From contig JBEWZL010000157.1 in NCBI GenBank assembly GCA_045837725.1, positions 62,001 to 84,697 of the forward strand: DNA of 22,697 nucleotides. The letters are read 5' to 3'. A program made the position numbers and the translations under genes. Positions within the stretch are counted from its first letter, which is position 1; every line of letters starts with the position of its first letter. This DNA is from Vermamoeba vermiformis. Taxonomy: Eukaryota. Shown one piece after another: positions 11-21,533 of this stretch. Under the pieces are notes generated by a model. That model did not search any database and was not told where the DNA came from. It saw nothing but the letters and a program-made list of their open reading frames with translations.

Positions 11-1081
11 ATGAACGTGGTCACATCTCTGAAAGAAGCTTTGAGAGAAATTGAAGACAAGCGGAGGCAAAAAGAAGAATCGCCAGATAATACATTAGAA
101 AATATATCTGAATTATTGAAAGTAGTGACAGCTCGATTTGAAGACCTAAACGAATCTGACGCGAACCAAGGTCTTTGTGCCGAGTTATTAGCGGAGGATA
201 TTCCAGTGCGATTAATCCATCATGTAATATATTTGAATAATAACGTTACGAAAGACGTGAAGAATTTTATTCAGGCCCTCTTGAAGTACAAAATTAACGA
301 TCAACAACCGGCATTAGCTTATTTCTCTTCAAATATTGCTGTTATATTGGACAGAATATTAAATGGCCTCGAGAATGCATTGACAGAAAATGGTGGATGG
401 TGGGCTATGGAAATTTTGACAGCTTGTATGAAATACGGATGCTTGACGGTTCAGATGCTAAATCTAGCGACAATCCGCAGACTTGCACAATGGGCGACAG
501 TAGACGATTTTGACATATCAGGTGCGGGAGTGCATGCATTACGACAGTTACTGTCCTCCCAGCCAGATTTGGTCTTGGAATTTCTGACACCAAATTTTGA
601 AGCGTTTTTTGACGTCATAATCGACATGGTGGACGCTAATACCCGTAACACGGGCAGAAGCGTTATGGGATTACTACGAAATATGTTGTTCCAGCCCACA
701 TACAAGCAATTTATGTTAAAGTTTGTGGCAGATGAGCCTCAAAAATACGCTGCGTTTGTTATCGAGCAGCAGTTAACGCCTTGGACTTCCTATCAATTAG
801 ACGTATGGCACGTTTTCAAATTATTTGTGGCCTATCCGAACAAAGTGAGTAAATTTCAAAACAGCATCGACTAGTCTACTAATTTTCTTCAGACTCCCGC
901 TACGAAAAGGCTGTTAATCGAGAATAGAGAGGACCTATTACCAGTAATTAACCGATTGAGAGGGCTCATTTGGAATCCTGATGATGTTGAGGAAGTGGAT
1001 CACGTTCATTACTTACTCTCAAATATGACCGAAGACTCGCATCAATTTAGCAGCAAAGAAATGGGGGCTGCGCAATTCTAA
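11..1081 (+). CDS. Mo25/CAB39-like scaffold protein (divergent), 2 exons
   Basis: ORF 11-844 spliced over a GT..AG intron (845-892) reads ...DVWHVFKLFVAYPNK|TPATKRLLIENREDLL..., matching the Mo25 C-terminal signature (FHVFKxFVANPNK). DFDISGAG...ALRQLL resembles Mo25 FDIAxDAFxTFKxLL. Stop TAA at 1079-1081. Confidence 0.8.
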
Positions 1082-2054: not shown

Positions 2055-4514
2055 TCAAAGGCGGAAGAACTCGTCGTCGCAGATCTCTCTGAAAGTGGGG
2101 CGTGCATTTTTGTCCACGGTGAGCAGGCGCGAGATGAAATTTCTTGTTTTTTCGGGCAATGCAGTGAACTCCGGCGCAGTCTTCTTCCAGTCACCAGCCA
2201 CTATGGAGTTCATGATCTCTTCTTCTCCGAGTTCGATGTTGTACGGAAATATGCCGGTGAAGAAAGCGTAGCACAAGATGCCGTAGCCCCACACATCGAC
2301 TTCTACGCCGTAGTTCTGTGCACCTTCCAGCGTGAACAGTTCTGGAGGTAAATTGTACACGGGCAAATTCTCAGGCGTAGCCGTGACTGGATGCTCACGG
2401 AAGAAGTTAATGGTTGTGAGGCGAAGATCGACTATAGAATAACGTGTCATCAGTTAACATGCTACAGCTGTAGGAGGCACTTACAAGTTTCCGGATGGAT
2501 CACAAACATGTCGAGACAGTGTGTCACGTAGTCCTTGGAAAACATCATGGCGGCGCTGAGTACTTGTCGTACGATGTCCTTCAAGACTCGTTCTTTGTCA
2601 GGCCAAACTTGGCTCTGTTGGACAACGAAGGACGATAAGGGTACGTAGCCGAGTTTGGTGTAGTCGATAGCTGCCACGTAGACATAACGGCCGCTCTCGC
2701 ACCAGTCCATGTACTCACTGACGTACGGAAGGCCCTTCAGTTTCTGGTACACTCTGGCTTCGTGCAGATATGAGTCAGTTTTGGGAATGGTTTTGTCAAG
2801 GACAACGGGGATAACTTTTCCGCTGCTCGGATCTGTTCGTTTTGCGCTGAACATTTGGTACTCCTCGTACATGGCCTGCACGTACTGTCGGACACCTTCG
2901 TCCACGTTATCCAAGTTTTTCGTTTCATCTTGCGTATCGGAGAATTGGCTCAACCAAGTTTTGAGAGCATCATATTGAGGATCTGCGACGATAACCTGCG
3001 GAGGCACTTCCGGCTCCTTAGGCACCACTTCTGGCGTCTGAGGCACGGTCAATGGCACATCTACGGGCACGGGTTGCGGTGTCGGTATCTCGGGTGCTTT
3101 AGTCTCAACAGCGGCATCGTCTTTGAATAAGAAACTAATGTCAACGCCAGTGACGTCGAGTACGAACGCGTCGTGTTCGATTTGGACCATAATCTGATGG
3201 CAGCTTCAGATCAGTACACGGAGTATTGCGACTATTATGCTAAGGTGATACTTACTTGTTTCAACTCGGCAATAGGCAAGTTGGGGGTAATACCAAACAT
3301 GGCAAAATGGCTGCGGAACTGTCTCGCCATGTCACGCATGGAAGTGTTTGTTCGATTCGAGCTGATACCTTCGTACCTAAAGGCGTTGGCTACTGCCTCG
3401 TGCAAGCTGGCTAAAATTGAGTTCAAAAGCGATGCGTTGCGTCATGGTCAAAAATCCGTGGTAGAACGGACCAATTGCGTGGGCAGGGGGCAACAGGCCG
3501 AGGATCAGTTTCGAGGCCTCCATGTGCATGCCCAGGTTCAGTTGTATGGTCTTCAAATTGAGCTCTTCGAAGCTGCAGTGAATTCAGTTCAGAATTCTAG
3601 ATTCCAAAAATGGATGCGGAACTTACCGTTGGGAAGACTCTGCTGAGAATTGAAGCTTTTTAAGGTGTGCATTTCTCAAAGCAGCCTCTAAAATACAAAA
3701 AAATTAATAAGGGGATCGAAACGTTACTTTTTTTTTCAAGGTTCTTACCCGCTGGTGCGGAGTGTACGATACTCATTTCAAGTGTTGCATGACGAACGTT
3801 GCCATGGGGAGTAACAGTGACGGATATGTCCTGGAACAGCATGCCCGCCATCGTTGCATTGATGGCGACGAAGAATTGCTTGATCTTTTCGGCATCCTGA
3901 TCTGTAGCTCCATTAGTGAGCTGGAATTCCAGGCGATAAAATTTTGCGGAGGTGCTCATTGACGTATATGACAATTTGATGGCAGCTTTAATGTCTTCAG
4001 GTGCCAGATTGCCAATCGTAATTTTCGAATCTACAACCAAGGTGTTTGGATCTCGTCCATTGGCGGATTTGGCGGCGATTGCGTTTCCATCGTTGGTATT
4101 ATGTTGTATTTTAGCCTTTTCTGCTTCTAAGTCATTCTTCGCTTTGTTGATTAAGTACGAGATGCTGCGCATCAGGCTTCTCGACTGCAGCTTAGCTTTG
4201 ACTTCCTTCAATTTATCCGCAGAGTGATCGCTGGAGTGAGTATTGTCGCGAGTGCACCACCAATCGAAGAACTCGTCGAACGAAATTGAACCGTTGCCAT
4301 CTCGATCGAGCACCGCCAAGTACTTAGCGACTTCCTCGTCGGTCATGATCTTGCCCATTGAATATATGAGATCATGAAACTCCTTGGCATCGATCTCGCC
4401 GCTTCCATCCGTGTCGAAAAGGTTGAAAACTTGACGAACTCTTTGTTTTAAAACTTCTCTGCTCTTCGGATTGGCGTATAATAGCTTAGTATCGTCTTTA
4501 TGAACTCGCTTCAT
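2055..4514 (-). CDS. EF-hand pair + uncharacterised domain + Pro-rich linker + C-terminal pseudokinase, multi-exon
   Basis: Two canonical EF loops (DTDGSGEIDAKE, DRDGNGSISFDE). Phase-consistent GT..AG introns near 3748-3688, 3626-3573, 3471-3411, 3254-3194 and 2484-2431 link these to a kinase fold with PPE, DVWGYG and RLLTVDKNARPT motifs but no HRD or DFG. The middle introns are the least certain; one uses a GTCCGT donor. Confidence 0.65.
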
Positions 4515-4722
4515 TGTTGTATTCGTTTGAGATAAATTTAAAATTCAACTGCCGGCAAAACGGTTATTTTTAGTCTTCGAGTCTCGCTAAAATCTCGCGT
4601 GGGAATTGGCGAGGTTTGTTGCCTTGGTTGCTGGCTCAATTCAATCCGATTTTAAAATACAATAAAATAGGACTGACTTACACCATTTATCATTCTCCAA
4701 AGCTTCGGCATAAATTCAATTC

Positions 4723-9351: not shown

Positions 9352-10556
9352 TTATTCGAACAAGGCCTCAGGATTGTGCACGAACACAGGGGCATCTTCA
9401 CCCTTGTATTCTGAAGGTTGACGTGCGGACACATGGCCAATGATGTAGCTCTCTTCACCGTGGTCTTTCAGCACTTTGCGCACGTGTTCAAGCTTGTCAG
9501 CAGCAACGACAATAACGAGACCAATACCCATGTTCCAGGTCTTCAGTAAGTCTGCAAAATTTGATTACTTACTCGTACATGAAGTATTAGAACGCCTTAT
9601 CAGAACTTACCATCAGCCGAGAATTTGCCTAAACTAATCAACCATTTGTAGACCGGAGGCAAAGGCCAGCTGCGCAAGTCCAAATCAACTTGGACGTTGC
9701 TGGGCACGACACGCGGAATATTCTCGGGCAAGCCACCGCCAGTGATGTGAGCCAAGGCCTTAATAGATTGGTCTTGAATGAGGGGCAGAACTTGCTTGAC
9801 GTAGATCTTAGTCGGCTCTAACAACGCGTCACCAATGCGTTGATGTTTTGACGGGAATGGCGGAGGTTGGTGCAAATCAATCTTGTTCACTGAAATGATC
9901 TTGCGGACCAACGAGTAGCCATTCGAGTGAATGCCTGAGGAGCTCAAGCCAAGTACGACGTCGCCAGGGACGACCAAGTCCAGCTTCGGCAACATCTGCT
10001 CGCGTTCAACAGCTCCGACAGCAAATCCAGCCAAGTCACTAAGACACTATTAGTATGAATGGAACCTGATTGTCAATATATAACGTACTATTCGCCAGGT
10101 TGGTACATGCCGGGCATTTCAGCAGTTTCACCACCGATCAGCGAGCAGCCACTTTGCAAGCAGCCATCAGCAATGCCCTTGACAACTTGATAACCTTCGT
10201 CAATGTTAAGAGAGGCACAGGCAAAGTAGTCCAAGAAGAACAACGGCTCGGCTCCTTGACACAGCACGTCGTTGACGGACATGGCCACAAGATCAATGCC
10301 AACTGTGTGATGCACGCCCATTTGTTGCGCCAACTTCAGCTTGGTGCCAACACCGTCAGTCTTGCTAACGAGGATGGGATCCTTGAAGTGAGTCTTGGAC
10401 ACGTCAAACAAGCAGCCAAAACCACCCAAAGCAGCGTCAGTGCCAACGCGTCGTGTGCTCTTGGCAAGAGGCTTGATGCGTTCAACGAGCTCGTCTTGAG
10501 CGGCAATATCGACACCAGCGTCCTTGTAGCTCAGTGACACCTTGCTAGTGCTAGTC
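9352..10556 (-). other. purM: AIR synthetase (PurM) domain of the trifunctional gene
   Basis: [38 protein letters not shown] and [22 protein letters not shown]. Confidence 0.95.
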
Positions 10557-12902
10557 CTTTCAAAGTCGTTAATATACTTGTCATCGAGCTGGTTAATTCC
10601 GACTTACTTCCAGTCCGGATCCAAACGACCTTGCTGTGCCATTCGAACTGCAGCTATCAGAGCAGGACCTTCAAGCGCTTGAACTTTAGCCTTCAAAGAT
10701 TCGGGAGTTTCGGCTGCTTCTACTTTGCAACGGTGTTGCACGATGACTTCTCCAGCATCAACTTCGGGCTCAATCAAATGGACGGAGCAGCCAGTCTCAG
10801 TCTTGCCACTCTCGAGCACTGCTTTGTGAACAGCAAGGTCCATCAAGCCCTTGAAGTCAGGGAGCAAGGACGGGTGGACATTGACCATAGGAATGCGCTA
10901 ATGAGAAAGTGAGTTATTGGTACCTTTCAGCGCTGAAATTCATTACTTACGAGCTTTTTGAAGTGTTCCACGAAGGGCTTGGACAAAATTCTCATCCAAC
11001 CAATCAGTAAAACCATGTCAATGCCTTCAAGGTACTCGATCAATTTAGCGTCGTATTTCTCTCTCGTCAAGCCATTGACTGGAATGAATTTGCACGGCAA
11101 GTTGTGCTCTTTGGCACGCGTCAAAATGTAAGCGTCAGATTTGTTGCTCAATACGATGCGGATTTCAGCGTTCAGTTCATTGGCGTTGATAGCGTCGATG
11201 ATAGCTTGCATGTCAGTGCCGCGAGTGGAGCCCAAGACGGCAAGACGCAGAGGCTTGAAACTCTTTTGAGCAATGTCTCTGCGGTACTGAGCACCTTCGA
11301 ATTTGATGTTTTCAAGAACTGCAGTAGATAGTTAATACAAAGTGTCGAGCTCTCGATATGATCGTACCTTCGTAGGCTCTGCCAGCAGCGCGATTAAGCG
11401 ACGAGTTGACAGCTGTCACAGCGAGCACGCGACCACCAGAAGTCACCAACTGACCGTCCTTAACTTGAGTACCTGCGTGGAAGATAACAACGTCCGACGA
11501 TTGAGCGTTGATGCCAGTGATGGGCTTGTTCGAGGCATAGCTGCCAGGATAGCCGCCCGAAGCTAAGACGACAGTAGCGGCCGACAGATTGCTGTGCCAG
11601 TGAACTTTAAGGCTGTCGAGAGTGCCATTGACGCAGGCTGAAGCAATTTCAAAGAGATCAGTCTTCAGCAAGGGCAAGACGACTTGAGTTTCAGGGTCGC
11701 CAAATCTGCAGTTGAATTCGAGCACGATGGGGCCTTTCTCAGTCATCATCAGTCCAGCAAACAAAACACCAACGAATGGAGTGCCTTCAGCGGCCATTCC
11801 TTTGATGGCAGGTTCGATGACTTTGGCTGTCAATTCGGCACGCAGCGCTTCGTAGTCTGGAACCGGAGCAAAAGCACCCATGCCTCCCGTGTTGGGTCCT
11901 TTGTCACCGTCATGGACACGCTTGTGATCCTGAGCGGTGGGCATTGAAATCACGTGCTTGCCGTCTGAAAAGGCGAGAAGGGAAATTTCTTCGCCGGACA
12001 AGACTTCTTCGAGCACCACTGCAGACAAGTCAGCTACGATTTCGCGAATAATAAATCATTGTTGTGAGGGGTAAATACCTGTGTCTCCAGCAGTTCCGAC
12101 GATTTTGTTTTGCATAATATCTTTGACTGCATCTTTGGCTGAAAAATTTTTGGTCAATACTTGACATCAAATCCAATTTTGATTTGTCTTACCTTCCTGT
12201 TTGTTTGCAGGAACGATTACACCTTTGCCGGCAGCCAAACCTGAGGCTTTGACAACAACGTTGTGGTCGAGCGAGTCGATGTACTGATAAATTTCTTCCA
12301 GCGATTGTGTATTCGTAAACGTTTTATACTGCGCGGTAGGAATGCCGTGGCGAATCATGAAGTCCTTGGCAAATGATTTTGAGGCTTCAATTTGAGCTGC
12401 TTTAGCTGTGGGACCGAAGCACGGGATCTTGGCGGTAGCCAGCTTGTCTAAATAAATTTTAAAATATTTTCGAACGGAATTTGCTGTATTTTAAAAAAGT
12501 TACCTGCTAAACCATTTGACAAAGGCACTTCAGGGCCGACAATCACGAGATCTACCTTTTGATCTGCGCAAAATGAAACAATATCGTCTTCTTTCGTAGC
12601 ATTATAATTTTCAATGGCAACCTTTTCATTTTTCATCGAGGCAGTTCCTACAAAGGGGAAGATAGCATTTAGATTCGTTCGTCATGATCTTTCGTGAAAT
12701 ATTAATATCTATTCAAATACCTCCATTTCCAGGGCAAACAACGATCCTATATTTTGATAATACATACAGGTCAAAAAACAATGTAAATTAAGGATCTGAT
12801 CTCGATCGCGCTCACCTTTTCGAGATGCGGGCTTTGCGCAAGCTTCCAAACGATAGCGTGTTCACGACCGCCTGATCCAACAACAACTACAGTTTTAGAC
12901 AT
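9352..12902 (-). CDS. GART: Trifunctional purine biosynthesis protein, domain order GARS(PurD)-GART(PurN)-AIRS(PurM), 11 exons
   Basis: Starts [21 protein letters not shown] (PurD). Contains DHKR, NTGGMGA and [12 protein letters not shown]; then [15 protein letters not shown] and [17 protein letters not shown] (PurN); then [45 protein letters not shown] and TWNMGIG (PurM). Stop TAA at 9354-9352. Nine of ten introns join in phase; the exon 1/2 junction is off by +1. Confidence 0.93.
10608..11253 (-). other. purN: GAR transformylase (PurN) domain of the trifunctional gene
   Basis: LIGWMRILS, catalytic N-x-H in NVHPSLLP, catalytic D in VDAG, and [14 protein letters not shown]. Confidence 0.95.
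11269..12902 (-). other. purD: GAR synthetase (PurD) domain of the trifunctional gene
   Basis: [55 protein letters not shown] and the terminal YRRDIA motif. Confidence 0.95.
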
Positions 12903-13088
12903 GCTTGGTAGCGTAAACAAATCGATATAAATTATAATAATAAACTTGGTGACCGTTGCACAAACAAGCGGTCAGAAAGTCGCAAAAAACTTTTCGACAA
13001 CCATTTACAACTTGTTTTTTAATCATTATTTATATATATAGCAATATATTGTACATACGTGATCGCTTTATAGCGAGCTTATTGTACA
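12903..13088. promoter_or_regulatory. Putative bidirectional promoter between the GARS-GART-AIRS gene and PurL
   Basis: 186-bp AT-rich interval between two divergent ATGs (12902 minus, 13089 plus). Contains a TATATATATA tract and an imperfect dyad at 12944-12980. Promoter function is inferred from geometry only. Confidence 0.7.
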
Positions 13089-16000
13089 ATGGCACTTTTA
13101 AAATATTTCAAAACTCCGGGCCTTTCTCCAGCCGAGGTTTCAGCCGTAAAAGACAAGGTTGCAACGTACTTTGGCAGCCAAATCACGTTAGAGCTCTTTG
13201 AGACCGAGAATTGCATTTATATTGACACTGATGGCCAGAAACTAGACGGATCAGATATTGAAAAATTATCCTGGCTCTTCCGAGAGACTTTTGAGCCTCA
13301 TAACTTTGGAACCTTATCCTTTATGGTACGTTCTTATTTTTAAAAATGAATTTCAGGTTTTGTGCACCAATTTCTCGACATACAAGGAACGATCTGATCT
13401 GCTTGTTTAGGACACTAAAGTAATGTCAGCTATCGACCCAACAAAAAGATGTGTTTTCGTGGAACTCGGTCCTCGATTGAATTTCTCTACAGCTTGGTCA
13501 ACAAACGCGATCAACATTTTCAGATCGTGTGGCTTGAGCAAAGTACAACGCATTGAACAGTCGCGCCGTTTGCTGTTACGACTTGCTTGCCACGATACAG
13601 TTGATGACGCTGCCTTCCATAAAGCTGAGAGCCAATTTATTTCCTCCCTTTACGATCGCATGACAGAAATGATCTACCGAGAGCCCCTGACAAGCTTCAA
13701 GTTAAATATGACTCCTGAGGTATTAATTAACGCTACAAGTAGCAATATAATAACATTTCTGACGGAATATTTCAGAACTGGTTTAAAGTGCCTGTCATCG
13801 AGCAAGGTCGTGCAGCGCTGGAGAAGATCAACAAAGAAATGGGCCTTGCATTCGACGATTGGGATTTGGACTATTACACTCAGTTGTTCAAAGAAAAGAT
13901 TCAACGCGATCCGACTTCCGTCGAGTGCTTCGATTTGAGTCAATCGAACAGCGAGCACTCTCGTCACTGGTTCTTCAAGGGAAAGTAAGTCGTTGACTCA
14001 AGTGCGCGTCAATCATATCTAACGGTGCTGATAGGATGGTCATTGACGGCCAAGAAATGCCGTTCTCTTTGTTTGACCTCGTTATGGACACGTTGAAGCA
14101 ATCACCTTCGACCAACTCGCTCATCGCTTATCGTGACAATGCTCGTGCCATCAAGGGCAGCACGATCAAACAGTTGCGCACGACAGATCCCACCACTGCA
14201 AGTCAAGTCGAGCCCGTTGAAAAAGAGTTCGCGCTGACGTTCACCGCCGAGACACATAACTTCCCCACGGGCATCGCACCCTTCCCCGGTGCTGAGACAG
14301 GCACTGGCGGTCGATTGCGTGACACTCACTGCGTAGGTCGTGGCGCGCTCATTATTGCCGGCACAGCTGGTTATTCCGTGGGCAATTTGAACATTCCCGA
14401 TTATCCTTTGCCTTGGGAGGACAACTCATGGAGCTATCCTTCAAATATGGCCAAGTACGTCTTTTTAATCCTGGGCGTCGTTACTTAATGTGCAACTTTC
14501 AGACCTTTGCAAATCGAAATCGAAGCTAGTAACGGAGCCAGTGATTACGGCAACAAGTTTGGTGAGCCAGTCATTCTCGGCTTTACGCGTTCATTGGGCA
14601 TCAAGACTCCCAACGGTGAACGACGCGAATACATCAAGCCCATCATGTTCACGGGTGGCTTCGGCCAAATGAGCATGGAGCATTTGAAGAAGGGTGATCC
14701 CGAGGTTGGTATGGTCATCGTTAAGCTCGGTGGTCCTGCCTATCGTATTGGAATTGGTGGTGGTGCTGCTAGCTCCATGGCGCAAGGTCAAAACGACGAG
14801 AACTTGGACTTCAATGCCGTGCAACGAGGCGATGCTGAAATGGTACGAATAATGAGCGCTTTAGAGTTGTATTAACGTTGTATGTTCAGGAATCCAAGAT
14901 GAACCGAGTCATTCGTGCTTGCGTGGAATTGGGACCTCGCAATCCAATCATCAGCATTCACGATCAAGGTGCTGGTGGCAATGGTAACGTGCTGAAAGAG
15001 ATTGTTGAGCCTGCTGGTGCTAAGATTGAGGTACGAATGAAACTCAAGTGCCCCATAACCGGATTTATTAACCGCGTGTTAGATCCGCAAAATTTTGGTT
15101 GGCGACGAAACTTTGTCAGTTCTCGAGATCTGGGGTGCTGAATACCAAGAAGCTGATGCCCTGTTGATCAAGCCTGAAGACATGACATTCTTTTCTTCTC
15201 TCTGCGAACGTGAAGGCTGCCCTGTAGCTTTCGTCGGTACTGTCACCGGTGATGGCCGTGTGGTAGTGCACGACGAGAAAGACAACTCCACGCCTTTTGA
15301 TCTCGAACTCGATCACGTGCTCGGTAAAATGCCGCGCAAGACGTTCAACAGCAACAGAGTGAAGATGGCTGGACAGCCGTTGTCCCTCAATGTCGGCGCG
15401 AAAGATCACCATGCAGCCACTAAGGCCATTCTCGACCGCGTTCTGCGCTTGCTGAGCGTTGGTTCGAAGAGATTTTTGGTTCACAAAGTCGACCGCTCAG
15501 TTAGTGGGCTCATTGCTCAACAACAGTGCGTTGGTCCTCTGCATATTCCTCTCGCGAACAACGCCGTCATCTCTCAAAGGTACGAGCCAATTGAATGTAA
15601 CGAAAGCGCTAGGGTACTAATACCGATTGCAGCTATTATGGCTTGACTGGTGGTGCTACATCAGTGGGTGAACAGCCGTTCAAGACTTTACTCGACCCCG
15701 CAGCGATGGCTCGTATGACTGTTGGAGAAGCGTTGACTAATTTGATCTTCACGAAAGTCTCTTCGGTAAGTTTCGTTTGCGCTTGAAAAAGATGACATTA
15801 AGTAATACCTGGATCGCAGCTCCAAGATGTCAAGTGCTCAGCCAACTGGATGTGGCCCGCGAAGTTACCCGGAGAAGGTGCTGCCATCTACGACGCCGTT
15901 CAAGGCTTGCACGATGTTCTCGTTGCACTCGGCGTTGCTATTGACGGAGGCAAGGACAGTTTGAGCATGGCCGCGAAGGTCACTCATCCCGACAACACCA

Positions 16001-17694
16001 CTGAAATGGTTAAAGCTCCTGGCACCCTCGTCTTGTCCACGAACTGCAGTGTACCGGATATCACGAAGAAGATCACCCCTGACATTAAAGCGGCTGGTGA
16101 AAGCAAGCTGATCTTCGTTAACTTGAGCGACAAACAACGGTAAGTTCTTCGGTGCATTTGATTGCAGATACCAATACATTACTTTAGACTTGGCTGCTCC
16201 GCTCTTACTCAAGTCTACAATCAACTCGGCGATGCTTGCCCTGATTTTGAGCACGTAGATTTATTCAAATCAACTTGGGAAGTCGTTCAGCACTTGATCG
16301 GCGAAGAGAAGCTGTTGGCAGGTCATGATCGCAGCGATGGTGGCTTGATCGTCACGCTGCTCGAAATGGCATTTGCTGGCGACTGCGGCCTGAACCTCTC
16401 ACTTGATGTCACCGGCGACTTCGACAAATCAATCGTCCCCTTCTTATTCAACGAAGAACTTGGTCTCGTGTTTGAAGTTCACAACTCCGTGCTGGAATCA
16501 GTGGTCAATGAATTTAAGAGCAAGTCAGTGTTCGTTATAGTCTTGGGCTCTACAACCGTTGAAAAGACAATCACAATCAAGGCTGGCGCATCTACGATTT
16601 TGCACGACAGTATGGTTGATTTGCGCGATGTCTGGGAGGCAACCAGCTTTGAACTGGAAATGCGCCAAAAGAATCCCAAGTGTATCGTGCAAGAGAAGAC
16701 CGGTCTAAAATCACGCAAGGCACCTCCAGTCAAGTTGAGCTTCAAACCAGTCGCATCGATCGAATCGCAATTGAAGGCTCCTACTAACCGTCCTCGTATC
16801 GCTGTGCTTCGCGAAGAAGGTAGCAACGGTGACCGCGAAATGGTTGCTGCTTGGTACACCGCTGGCTTCGATGTTTGGGACGTGAAGATGTCGGACTTTG
16901 TCACCTCTGACTTCAGCTTGAAATCGTTCCGCGGTGTTGCTTTCGTTGGCGGCTTTTCGTACGCAGATGTGCTGGGCTCGGCTAAGGGTTGGGCTGGCGT
17001 CACACGCTTCAACGAGAAGATTTTCAAGGAGTTCAACGATTTCTACGCTCGGTAATGATTAATTTGGTGTTTTATTTCTATGCGTGTCTAACCTCGTCAA
17101 TTGCAGCAAAAATACGTTCAGTTTGGGAGTTTGCAATGGCTGTCAATTGATGGCGTTACTAGGCTGGGTACCTTACGGCAAGGAAACACCCGATGAGAAG
17201 CAGCCTCGCTTCATTCGCAACCTTTCGGAGCACTTCGAGTCGCGTTACAGCACTGTGAAGATTTTGCCTAGTCCAGCAATTATGTTGAAAGGAATGGAAG
17301 GATCGACGCTTGGTATTTGGGTAGCGCATGGAGAAGGTACAAGTACAACTTTTACTAATTCAACTGCTAATGTATTCCTTCCAAAGGTCGCGCTTATTTC
17401 CCGGATCACGCAATTTTCGATTCGGTTATTCAAAAGAATTTGGCTCCGATTCGATACGTTGATGATGATAACAATCATACTGAGCAATATCCATTTAATC
17501 CTAATGGTTCACCGCTTGGCATTGCATCCTTGTGCTCCGAAGATGGCCGCCACCTAGCAATCATGCCGCATCCAGAGCGATGCTTCCTGAAATGGCAATT
17601 GCCATGGATGCCTGCAGACTGGAGGTCTTTGGAGGCTTCACCTTGGCTGAAAATATTCCAGAACGCTCGTATTTGGTGTGATGCAACTCTCTAA
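13089..17694 (+). CDS. purL: Phosphoribosylformylglycinamidine synthase (large PurL/PFAS/Ade6), 12 exons
   Basis: GPRLNFSTAWSTN, QSNSEHSRHWFF, AETHNFPT, GASDYGNKFGEP, HDQGAGG, KVDRSV, DGGKDSLSM, HDRSDGG, REEGSNGDREM, GGFSYADVLGS, and glutaminase GVCNGCQ and MPHPER. All 11 introns join in phase. Confidence 0.97.
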
Positions 17695-19816: not shown

Positions 19817-21533
19817 TTATTCGCTACTGTCATCGGATGAAAGCTCCATTTCATTGCCGGACAACTGGTTGATCTTCTCCATGCACTCGGCAGTGTGCAA
19901 TTCTGCTATGTTTGAGTCCTCCTGACAGACAAGACATGCCTTATAAGTTTCACATATCTCACAGGTCCAAAATTTGTGGTTGACTCGATATATTTTCTGA
20001 CATGTCGTACATGTACGCTGCTGGATCCAGTGCTGTTCCTTCTGTTTTTTCTTCTCAGCTGCCTCAGCTTTCTCTTTTTGAGCATCCTGTTTGTCCTTCT
20101 TGACTTGCTCTCTCTTCTGCTTGGCAGCATTCTTCTCTTCTTGCAATTTCTTGGCCTCAGCCTCGACTTTTTCAGCGTGTTCCAGCATTTCAGAACCAAG
20201 CATCAGTTTGTTCTTGGCAGCAGAGCGTCCTTGCCTGGGCTTTGTCTTGTTTGTGTTGGAGGTCACAACCTCCTTAACTGTGTCCACCATTGACAAGAAC
20301 TGTTTCTCTTCGGGCGGAGTAGCCTTCGACTTTTGTTGCCACAGGTACGCGTTGACAAATTTGTCGCGTATCACCTTTTCATCAAAGGGCCAGATGCCTG
20401 TGTGCTTGAATCCAGCTTGAATGACCTCTTTTGTGAATATTTGGGACTTGTTCTCTTCAAGTATCTCCTCAAGCATACCATCCATTGTCCCCAGAGATTA
20501 GTCGCTTCATTCTTTCCCACTCGACACTTTTGCGCATGTTGAATTTGAATGAGGCAAATATGACGTCATCAAGAGGTTGAAGCAAATGGGTAGTATGAGC
20601 AGGTAGGTACAGTGGCTGAATATTGTTATCCACCATTAGTTTGCAACTGGAAAGCTCAAGGTGGGTACTGTGTCGATCAAGAAGTAAGAGCGCTGGTCGA
20701 TTGGCCTTGAAGGCGTTAAGTTGCTCCACAAGTGCTGCTATAATTTGCTTCCATAATTCATTTGTTATAAATCCATTAGCAGTAGTTGCATAATAAGTGG
20801 GGCTAGAGCTCCTGGTAAGGCGAAGCTGTGGTATGACAGGAATCGTCGTGCCCTTGCCCGTGTCACCTTTTGACATCTCTTTGTAGATCAGCACGGTCAT
20901 CCATACTCTGCCAGACGCAGCAACAAAAGGCAATATAGTTCGTAGGTGACCTTTGGGAGTATTCATCCTCCCTTGCTTTTTTGACTTGGCACTCATTAGT
21001 AGCTTGCGAACTTCTGAATCATTGAACTTACATGGAGATTCGTCTGCATTAATGATGAAGTCCTCAGAATAATCGTTTTGAGCCAATAACTTCTTGTATA
21101 TAGCAATGAATTGATTTAATACATCAGGAGAGACTGAATTAACACGACCCATGTCAAGACCTTTTCCAAACGTGTGTGATATGAGATCGCCGCGTCGTTT
21201 TACAAATCCAGAAAACCAATGATCGCCTCGCCAATTGTCATCTAATTTCCAAATTGTCCGCACAAATGTTAAGAACATGGTACGTGAGAAAGGCATTCCA
21301 ACTGCCGAGAAGGCCAAAATTATCGCACAAAGTCGTTTTTCTTCCTCATCTGAAAACTTGCGATTTCCATGTTGCTTATTTTTTTGTTTTTTTGAACGCT
21401 GATAAGCCTTACGTAATGTTTCAAATTTGATATTATTATTTGCACTAATTTAGCAAATAATTTTGCGAGCGGAGGATTCTCCCGCCGAAATCCGCTGGTT
21501 GATCAGTGTGAATAATTCGCCGTACTTGCTCAT
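19817..21533 (-). pseudogene. Disrupted DD35D transposase (CENP-B-like HTH + DDE_1 + coiled coil + Cys-rich finger)
   Basis: ATG at 21533. WFSGFVKRR HTH, INADES, LLLDRHSTH and LQPLD (35 residues between the last two Asp), GFKHTGIWPFD, C-terminal CTTC..WTCEIC..CLVC. In-frame TAA at 21452-21450 and a +1 frameshift near 20490. Confidence 0.85.

Follow-up and report, generated by a model that had tools for sequence, protein, structure and literature searches.

Introduction

The animal trifunctional GART enzyme unites in one chain the same three predicted activities of purine synthesis as the protein described here, GARS (PurD, step 2), AIRS (PurM, step 5) and GART (PurN, step 3), but in the order GARS-AIRS-GART. 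It is reportedly the subject of a 2010 paper by Welin et al., and structures of human GART include 1zlx and 1meo. The animal order had been given as established in the original prediction made for this locus, and a hemichordate control protein (P0062) reproduced it, with GARS at residues 4-425, AIRS at 495-772 and GART at 819-1001.

Another fusion is fungal. Ade5,7 carries an N-terminal GARS and a C-terminal AIRS in one chain, as our protein does; according to PMC8449271, no GART lies between them and a separate gene, Ade8, encodes GART. PMC10912719 deals with vertebrates and bacteria only.

We analysed a stretch of 22,697 nucleotides from Vermamoeba vermiformis (the window) that carries a third arrangement, GARS-GART-AIRS. 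We are highly confident that this is a real nuclear gene, spliced and expressed, which encodes a trifunctional purine enzyme and is a member of an existing and widely spread class.

Gene model and domain order

The gene begins with an ATG at 12902..12900 and ends with a TAA at 9354..9352 (Table 1). Spliced at the joints given by the contigs of run X1, it reads as a single open frame of 991 amino acids in which the sole stop is the terminal one. The fused gene that had been predicted is thus present, although it has ten introns rather than the few that were expected; these are 49-73 nt each, and nine of the ten are GT..AG.

Table 1. Coordinates of the features in the window
Feature	Position	Strand	Description
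Trifunctional gene, whole coding region	9352..12902	minus	11 exons, 2976 nt spliced, 991 codons
GARS (PurD, step 2) part	11268..12902 (low boundary approximate)	minus	Exons 1-6 and start of exon 7
Exon 7	10951..11318	minus	One uninterrupted frame with the GARS_C end, a few linker residues and the N-terminal GART half
GART (PurN, step 3) domain	10646..11247	minus	Formyl_trans_N; split by intron 7 (10950..10898)
AIRS (PurM, step 5) part	9355..10556	minus	Exons 9-11, AIRS and AIRS_C
Intron 1 as placed by X1 contig	12748..12817	minus	AG..TA on the window; joint 12747/12818
Intron 8	10557..10607	minus	51 nt, GTAAGT..AG, phase-preserving, joins GART to AIRS
Spacer between divergent start codons	12903..13088	.	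186 bp, presumed shared promoter region
FGAM synthase (PurL, step 4), multi-exon	13089..17557 (last matching exon ends near 17557)	plus	Assigned by Pfam

In a Pfam profile search, 8/8 exon translations matched the expected families, and the families follow one another along the minus strand as GARS_N, GARS_A, GARS_C, Formyl_trans_N, AIRS and AIRS_C. All six domains therefore stand in the predicted GARS-GART-AIRS order, which is also, as had been pointed out, the order of the pathway (steps 2, 3 and 5). A complete GARS module stands at the N-terminus of the protein: GARS_N (E-value 1.9e-9) extends over exons 1-4, GARS_A is matched over profile positions 1-64 and 81-194 (3.7e-19 and 2.4e-47) and GARS_C over 1-74 (1.9e-23), with its tail in exon 7. 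Formyl_trans_N is matched over positions 2-181 of 181 in exons 7 and 8 (6.1e-15 for 2-102; 1.8e-22 for 103-181). Its roughly 200 residues separate GARS from AIRS, so that the fungal/bacterial GARS-AIRS layout is not matched. At the C-terminus, AIRS (6.9e-21) and AIRS_C (1.3e-24 and 3.7e-8) share the reading frame of GARS-GART in the spliced model.

PurD had been said to run into PurN within one exon. Both domains do lie in the open frame 11331..10927, which holds the end of GARS_C and then Formyl_trans_N from residue 29, and the GARS-GART junction therefore requires no splicing. It aligns without change of length to 16 other proteins of the same order and is tightly conserved among them, while the GART-AIRS linker is variable.

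Conservation in a related contig

The exon/intron layout recurs in a related metagenome contig (L001), in which intron 8 has the same position. Its exons are identical to those of the window at 1158 of 1458 positions (79%) and its introns at 127 of 243, intron 8 itself at 22 of 51 (43%). The exon differences fall 42, 20 and 238 on the first, second and third codon positions (486 positions each). The layout is shown to be conserved under purifying selection in this related genome.

Transcript evidence and the GART-AIRS joint

Two contigs of run X1 cover the gene. The first, of 1966 nt, skips exactly 51 nt at the joint 10555/10607, reaches 62 nt into the AIRS side, and extends on through GART and GARS with all other introns there removed; the second, of 1030 nt, covers the rest of AIRS (9354..10492) with two introns removed. 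Their ten joints match all ten introns and their depths are near-equal (8.18 and 8.29). The contigs abut near 10493, the full coding region being spanned by no single contig or read. Run X1 is 95-99% alike to the window; its source is a relative or a different strain and need not be the same organism. Since it is labelled RNA by guess only, we take it for cDNA because all ten introns are missing from it. Read in this way, it confirms that a 51-bp intron at 10607-10557 links PurN to PurM. Three raw RNA runs with the same species label (X22, X23 and X24; 4, 10 and 38 reads at 90-95% likeness) support the joint 10038/10089; their depth over 10510-10770 is zero, leaving the key intron uncovered.

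Acceptors 6 and 12 nt downstream of that of intron 8 (AG at 10552-10551 and 10546-10545) would keep the frame. Neither is taken for the main form, since a 51-nt intron agrees with the X1 contig and with L001 alike.

The length of intron 8 is divisible by three, and its first bases create a TAA in frame, at which its retention would stop translation immediately. This allows for a GARS-GART protein ending at the TAA, with AIRS either a separate product or absent. GARS-GART proteins do exist, such as the bifunctional record of Lotharella globosa and those in 26 of the best 150 representative clusters (many of the 26 being fragments), and X1 consists of assembled contigs, which drop rare variants, so that a minor form with the intron retained could have been lost. 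We nevertheless consider this reading very unlikely: intron 8 is removed in the X1 contig, its 51 nt have diverged as the other introns have and not as exons, and the AIRS exons are in phase and under purifying selection. Moreover, AIRS lacks a separate start codon upstream of its conserved N-terminus. As predicted, the ORF listing gives no ATG between the intron-8 TAA and the conserved PurM start, and the first Met of the AIRS frame lies well inside the domain. A single fused product remains our reading of the joint.

Intron 1, as placed by the X1 contig, is non-canonical on the window sequence. The A-run at 12820..12817 has four As there, and the one GT..AG pair available, 12815..12748, puts the reading out of frame and leads to a stop at codon 42. 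Were this exon-1 frameshift real, the gene would be a pseudogene; alternatively, the domains could have been juxtaposed by assembly in a chimera. Both possibilities appear highly improbable to us, given that this very homopolymer is where the X1 contig departs from the window, by one A, that the downstream 2.9 kb is intact with a third-position-biased divergence from L001, and that the same layout occurs independently in the X1 contigs and in L001. The simpler reading of the exon-1 A-run is a single-base difference due to assembly or strain.

A divergent FGAM synthase gene

A gene for FGAM synthase lies head-to-head with the trifunctional gene. Successive plus-strand frames match FGAR-AT_N (1.8e-15), FGAR-AT_PurM_N-like (3e-21), AIRS_C and GATase_5 (1.7e-29), and the two start codons are 186 bp apart. 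The spacer, presumably a shared promoter, contains an imperfect inverted repeat (I2) of 12 nt, 83% complementary, at 12944-12955 / 12969-12980. This pairing brings steps 2-5 together at a single short spacer, a eukaryotic example of pathway clustering that can be tested.

Distribution of the domain order

The GARS-GART-AIRS order recurs in 18 of the 22 homologues scanned (16 full length and 2 truncated), in the Albugo and Aphanomyces proteins and in 3/3 giant-virus ORFs examined. Further named records that carry it are those of Balamuthia, Copromyxa, Chromulina and Salpingoeca urceolata. Among the best 150 representative clusters, 19 have this order, next to the 26 with GARS-GART and three with GART-AIRS, as clusters or fragments. 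The records that bear it come from Amoebozoa, oomycetes, a chrysophyte, a choanoflagellate (as a transcriptome), giant viruses (as contigs) and many metagenome proteins. The protein search with the GARS part gave no match above 62% identity, and one with the Mo25 frame of the window at E <= 1e-30 gave no match.

The original prediction had presented the architecture as new, on the understanding that finding it already widespread in databases would remove the novelty. It is widespread, and the window gene is a further example of an arrangement already in public databases, not a discovery. A literature search gave no paper whose title or opening abstract lines name the order, which would fit a recent, lineage-specific invention of the window organism, and a survey by Chua and Fraser (2020), cited by PMC8449271, may describe it. 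The records from the groups listed above share the order, the junction and the GART loop, and they refute such a recent invention, to which we attach next to no probability. The suggested value of the order as a phylogenetic marker is also doubtful: its wide and patchy spread makes it a weak marker and raises the question of which order is older.

Origin of the GART domain and of the fusion

The GART loop of the window protein reads G-S-T-R-G-T and is preceded, as in its relatives, by the short conserved GARS_C-GART junction. A motif count found the pattern G-[ST]-[TS]-R-G-[TS] in 32 of 37 same-order proteins as well as in the window protein, whereas animal GARTs have the loop S-G-x-G-T-N-L-Q, of the canonical PurN type (S-G-x-G-[ST]-N-L-Q). 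The window GART is 50-58% identical to same-order GARTs and 36-39% identical to those of animals, and in the GART tree the window and animal GARTs fall on opposite sides of a branch with 97% SH-aLRT. The catalytic Asn/His/Asp of animal GART are kept, at positions that correspond to 106/108/144 of 1zlx_A, the chain of the human GART domain, in a PDB alignment. By its sequence, the GART domain of this class is a PurN subfamily with a G-S-T-[RK]-G-[TS] loop, unlike the C-terminal GART of the animal enzyme.

Since the window GART comes from another PurN lineage than animal GART, its fusion is independent of the animal one. That part of the original prediction is upheld by GART identity, loop and tree branch; the idea of a lineage-specific arrangement is not. 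Regarding the order of events, we lean towards an AIRS added to an older GARS-GART gene, rather than a PurN inserted into an older GARS-AIRS gene, since the junction of GARS with GART is tightly conserved, the linker from GART to AIRS varies and GARS-GART proteins are many. Separate phylogenies for the domains had been proposed as a check: the GART tree splits the window from animals, and the GARS tree, where the branch of Salpingoeca urceolata is very long, does not separate the deep order of events.

A broader scenario, which we put forward as a speculation that is probably wrong, is that GARS-GART-AIRS on its own PurN subfamily is old, perhaps ancestral in several eukaryotic supergroups, that the animal order arose by a swap in the stem, and that steps 2-5 form one regulatory unit. 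If this were true, the animal stem would have lost the internal GART and gained a canonical PurN at the C-terminus, the pathway order in Salpingoeca urceolata would date the swap between choanoflagellates and animals, and the 186-bp bidirectional promoter would tie step 4 to the enzyme within that unit.

Proposed function

From its families, the window enzyme is predicted to have the activities EC 6.3.4.13, 2.1.2.2 and 6.3.3.1, the sequence check being confined to the GART residues. GARS would ligate glycine to phosphoribosylamine with ATP, GART would move the formyl group from 10-formyl-tetrahydrofolate by means of the conserved Asn/His/Asp, and AIRS would close the imidazole ring with ATP. 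The protein may dimerise through AIRS, as PurM and human GART do. Step 4 would be supplied by the divergent FGAM synthase gene, probably under the shared control region.

Comparison with known systems

The class is present but poorly named in public protein collections, and a single further gene matters little. What the comparison brings out is that names of the adenosine-3 type hide two non-homologous three-in-one builds, each with a different PurN subfamily, which matters for the use of domain order as an evolutionary character and for the transfer of structural and purinosome models from human GART. The animal build resembles the window protein at 52-56% identity in GARS and 43-55% in AIRS.

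Giant-virus contigs of the IMG/VR GVMAG set (L027, L028 and L034) carry the same order as the window in uninterrupted ORFs of 904-974 aa. They differ in being intron-free and in a viral context, with 30-35% identity over the junction exon. The oomycete proteins of Albugo candida (UniRef/NCBI, 1148 aa) and Aphanomyces euteiches (1166 aa) share the order and are 50-55% identical to the window; they have a loop of the G-S-T-R-G-S type and an N-terminal extension of about 170-190 residues, and in the GARS tree they fall into a group of their own, which is stramenopile-like. Both are named 'Trifunctional purine biosynthetic protein adenosine-3', the animal name for a different order.

Closer to the window are Balamuthia mandrillaris KAL6079274.1 (1036 aa) and its relatives P0009 and P0011, with the same order and identities of 58/57/60% for GARS/GART/AIRS. 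This group is the nearest to the window in the GARS tree (SH-aLRT 93, on a branch that is not starred). It shares the short GARS-GART junction and the G-S-T-R-G-T loop, and its GART-AIRS linker is about 20-25 residues longer than that of the window and rich in K/R/Q/E. The NCBI name of KAL6079274.1 is 'Phosphoribosylformylglycinamidine cyclo-ligase'. In the GART tree the nearest row is Copromyxa protea (EukProt EP01127 P014504), again on a branch that is not starred, and the two trees together place the window organism loosely, nearest to the Balamuthia and Copromyxa rows. Its protein has the same order, 992 aa against 991 aa, and identities of 55/56/53% for GARS/GART/AIRS; as the record is a Trinity transcript, it shows a fused mRNA independently.

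Gene model and domain order

Minus-strand stop-to-stop frames in the ORF listing of the window bear purine-enzyme segments from 12902 to 9352, and all eight translated frames have a Pfam match, in the order GARS (PurD), GART (PurN), AIRS (PurM) along that strand (see table). Frame 11331..10927 carries the GARS_C tail and then Formyl_trans_N from residue 29, so the GARS-GART junction does not depend on any splicing assumption, and PurD does run into PurN within one exon, as originally predicted.

We built an exon model from the minus-strand reading and the joints seen in public sequence data. A script joined the 11 exons into 2976 nt, or 991 codons, with the sole stop at the end; of the ten introns, nine have GT..AG ends and measure 49-73 nt. 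The first bases of intron 8 complete an in-frame TAA, and the ORF listing has no ATG between this TAA and the conserved PurM start, in agreement with the claim that PurM lacks an ATG of its own at this joint.

Features of the trifunctional gene and its surroundings (window coordinates)
Feature	Position	Strand	Basis
GARS_N	12681..12448	-	Pfam
GARS_A	12490..12167 and 12055..11312	-	Pfam
GARS_C, up to profile position 74 of 92	frame 12055..11312	-	Pfam
Formyl_trans_N, profile 2-102	11331..10927	-	Pfam
Formyl_trans_N, profile 103-181	10897..10604	-	Pfam
AIRS	10603..10088	-	Pfam
AIRS_C	10046..9600 and 9564..9352	-	Pfam
Exon 1	12902-12818	-	joint-based model
Exon 2	12747-12721	-	joint-based model
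Exon 3	12647-12504	-	joint-based model
Exon 4	12447-12193	-	joint-based model
Exon 5	12138-12079	-	joint-based model
Exon 6	12018-11368	-	joint-based model
Exon 7	11318-10951	-	joint-based model
Exon 8	10897-10608	-	joint-based model
Intron 8, GTAAGT..AG, 51 nt	10607..10557	-	original prediction
Exon 9	10556-10089	-	joint-based model
Exon 10	10038-9611	-	joint-based model
Exon 11	9551-9352	-	joint-based model
FGAM synthase frames	13089 to ~17557	+	Pfam
Spacer between divergent ATGs	12903-13088		
Imperfect inverted repeat in spacer	12944-12955 / 12969-12980		
Mo25-like frame	11-874	+	E 9.8e-34
EF-hand protein frame	3660-4544	-	
DDE_1 transposase-like frame	20469-21449	-	E 5.8e-16

Four consecutive As close exon 1, ahead of GTGAG (12811-12824, minus strand), and the acceptor region lies at 12741-12750 on the same strand. 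If intron 1 is spliced from the GT of GTGAG to the one AG acceptor available, the reading frame changes and meets a stop at codon 42. The spliced contig of X1, a public sequencing run with contigs matching the window, reads as though there were three As here; with three, a canonical GT..AG intron leaves the frame open. The window's fourth A probably reflects either a one-base error in this homopolymer or variation between strains.

Among solved structures, chains of the human GART domain match the second GART exon of the window's gene (E 4e-15). The alignment places Asn, His and Asp of the window's GART at chain positions 106, 108 and 144 of 1zlx_A, which we take to be the catalytic residues. 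For GARS and AIRS, likely activity was assessed from Pfam scores.

Splicing and comparison with a second genome

The X1 contigs are assemblies 95-99% alike to the window, and they lack all ten introns of the trifunctional gene. One of them, of 1966 nt, starts 62 nt within the AIRS exon, omits exactly the 51 nt of intron 8 and runs on through GART and GARS up to exon 1; the proposed intron has been removed in this contig, from a run whose label as RNA is a guess. A 1030-nt contig spans 9354..10492, without its two introns, and the depths of the two are 8.18 and 8.29, respectively. Since the two meet near 10493, neither record alone covers the coding region from end to end. Three raw RNA runs labeled as the same species contributed just 4, 10 and 38 matching reads (90-95% alike); these reads back joint 10038/10089, and their depth at the intron-8 joint is zero.

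Scanning metagenome contigs with the junction exon (exon 7) yielded 24 loci, including L001 (1729 nt), a contig of a related organism and a 90% match at the protein level. Between exon 5 and the beginning of exon 9, exons and introns of L001 are laid out as in the window; intron 7 is longer in L001, and an intron 3 nt longer than the window's lies at the intron-8 position. Identity with the window is 1158/1458 (79.4%) in exons, 127/243 (52.3%) in introns and 22/51 (43%) in intron 8, and the exon differences number 42, 20 and 238 at codon positions 1, 2 and 3 (486 each). These identities and the codon-position bias argue that the 51 nt act as an intron and that the flanks on both sides act as coding sequence which purifying selection maintains in another genome as well.

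Gene neighborhood

On the plus strand, frames matching FGAR-AT_N, FGAR-AT_PurM_N-like, AIRS_C and GATase_5 make up FGAM synthase (PurL, step 4). Its ATG at 13089 and that of the trifunctional gene at 12902 are divergent and 186 bp apart, so that one gene pair encodes steps 2, 3, 4 and 5; this pair may be under shared regulation. The DDE_1 transposase-like, Mo25-like and EF-hand frames are ordinary neighbors.

Distribution of the domain order

The possible novelty of the arrangement did not survive database searches: the gene adds a further example to a class already in public collections, in many lineages. A word-indexed search of longer proteins with the junction exon gave 31 matches, of which 22 were scanned with Pfam. 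Formyl_trans_N lies between GARS_C and AIRS in 18 (16 full length, two truncated); the other four are GARS-GART (two), GARS-GART-MGS-AICARFT (one) and amidotransferase-GARS-GART (one). By source name, the order occurs in records of the amoebae Balamuthia mandrillaris (NCBI KAL6079274.1) and Copromyxa protea, in Chromulina nebulosa and Salpingoeca urceolata (the last three from EukProt transcript or gene models) and, from a search with the large GARS exon, in the oomycetes Aphanomyces euteiches and Albugo candida. The Albugo protein bears the name of the animal trifunctional protein in UniRef. A hemichordate control was GARS-AIRS-GART.

Searched exhaustively with HMMER, a set of 1.84 billion cluster representatives gave 3333 matches at E <= 0.001. 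By blastp with three parts of the gene model, the best 150 of these 3333 clusters comprised 19 GARS-GART-AIRS, 26 GARS-GART (many of them fragments), three GART-AIRS (fragments), one GARS-AIRS-GART and 101 GART only. Viral contigs yielded 14 loci, and all three IMG/VR giant-virus contigs examined (L027, L028 and L034) encode GARS-GART-AIRS in one intron-free ORF each (904, 974 and 926 aa, respectively).

Our literature searches found no paper naming this order; the survey by Chua and Fraser (2020), cited in PMC8449271, may describe it. Passages of PMC8449271 place GARS-AIRS in Amoebozoa and Fungi, with GARt added in Metazoa ‘and some protists’, there without an order, and those of PMC10912719 are confined to vertebrates and bacteria.

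Order of the fusion events

In the same-order alignment, GARS and GART are joined by a junction of one fixed length, and linkers between GART and AIRS differ by as much as ~30 residues; Pfam scans also find GARS-GART joined to other partners. The fixed junction and varied partners lead us to lean towards a GARS-GART core that would be older than the joining of AIRS. Proteins P0020, P0022, P0024 and P0034 build on this core as GARS-GART-MGS-AICARFT (PurH), amidotransferase/PRTase (PurF)-GARS-GART and GARS-GARS-GART-AIRS, with duplicated GARS.

A GARS tree of 91 rows, in which 22 of 63 GARS-only and 22 of 41 GARS-AIRS rows were kept, joins oomycetes to Chromulina (SH-aLRT 97) and groups the window with Balamuthia and its relatives at SH-aLRT 93 (branch not starred). 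Deeper branching shows no clear order in this tree, and the branch leading to S. urceolata is very long. Many GARS-AIRS fusions nearest the window's GARS exon carry the names of Anaerolineae/Chloroflexi metagenome-assembled genomes (P0082, P0085, P0117 and others), so this fusion is not confined to eukaryotes if the bins are clean.

Independence from the animal fusion

The original observation stands on good evidence: the window's gene is a real GARS-GART-AIRS fusion, independent in origin of the animal enzyme's GART fusion; the predicted independence holds for the GART part. GART identity is mostly 50-58%, down to 42%, with same-order and GARS-GART proteins, versus 36-39% with animal trifunctional proteins (GARS 52-56%, AIRS 43-55%). 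An unrooted GART tree (109 near-complete domains, quick maximum-likelihood search, single-matrix model), from a sample biased to query relatives and omitting rows with <165 aligned residues, has a branch (SH-aLRT 97) setting 90 rows apart from eight animal rows and 11 canonical PurNs. The 90 comprise all 37 GARS-GART-AIRS, all 19 GARS-GART, four GART-AIRS, 29 free-standing GARTs and P0268.

P0268, a metagenome protein of 988 aa, has the animal-like order GARS-AIRS-GART with a G-S-T-R-G-S loop, within the protist-type GART group, and may have become trifunctional by yet another, third route. Free-standing PurNs of ~200 aa (P0168, P0161, P0225, P0188 and others) share a G-S-T-[RK]-G-[TS] loop, which therefore marks a PurN subfamily predating or escaping the fusions.

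Among proteins whose GART match starts <=15 residues from the domain start, G-[ST]-[TS]-R-G-[TS] occurs in 32/37 GARS-GART-AIRS, 27/36 GARS-GART, 3/4 GART-AIRS, 39/101 GART only, 1/8 GARS-AIRS-GART and 0/1 GARS-AIRS-GART-AIRS. All same-order proteins aligned have the constant-length junction followed by a loop of the G-S-T-R-G-T type, as in the window, whereas the GART loop of animal trifunctional proteins is S-G-x-G-T-N-L-Q.
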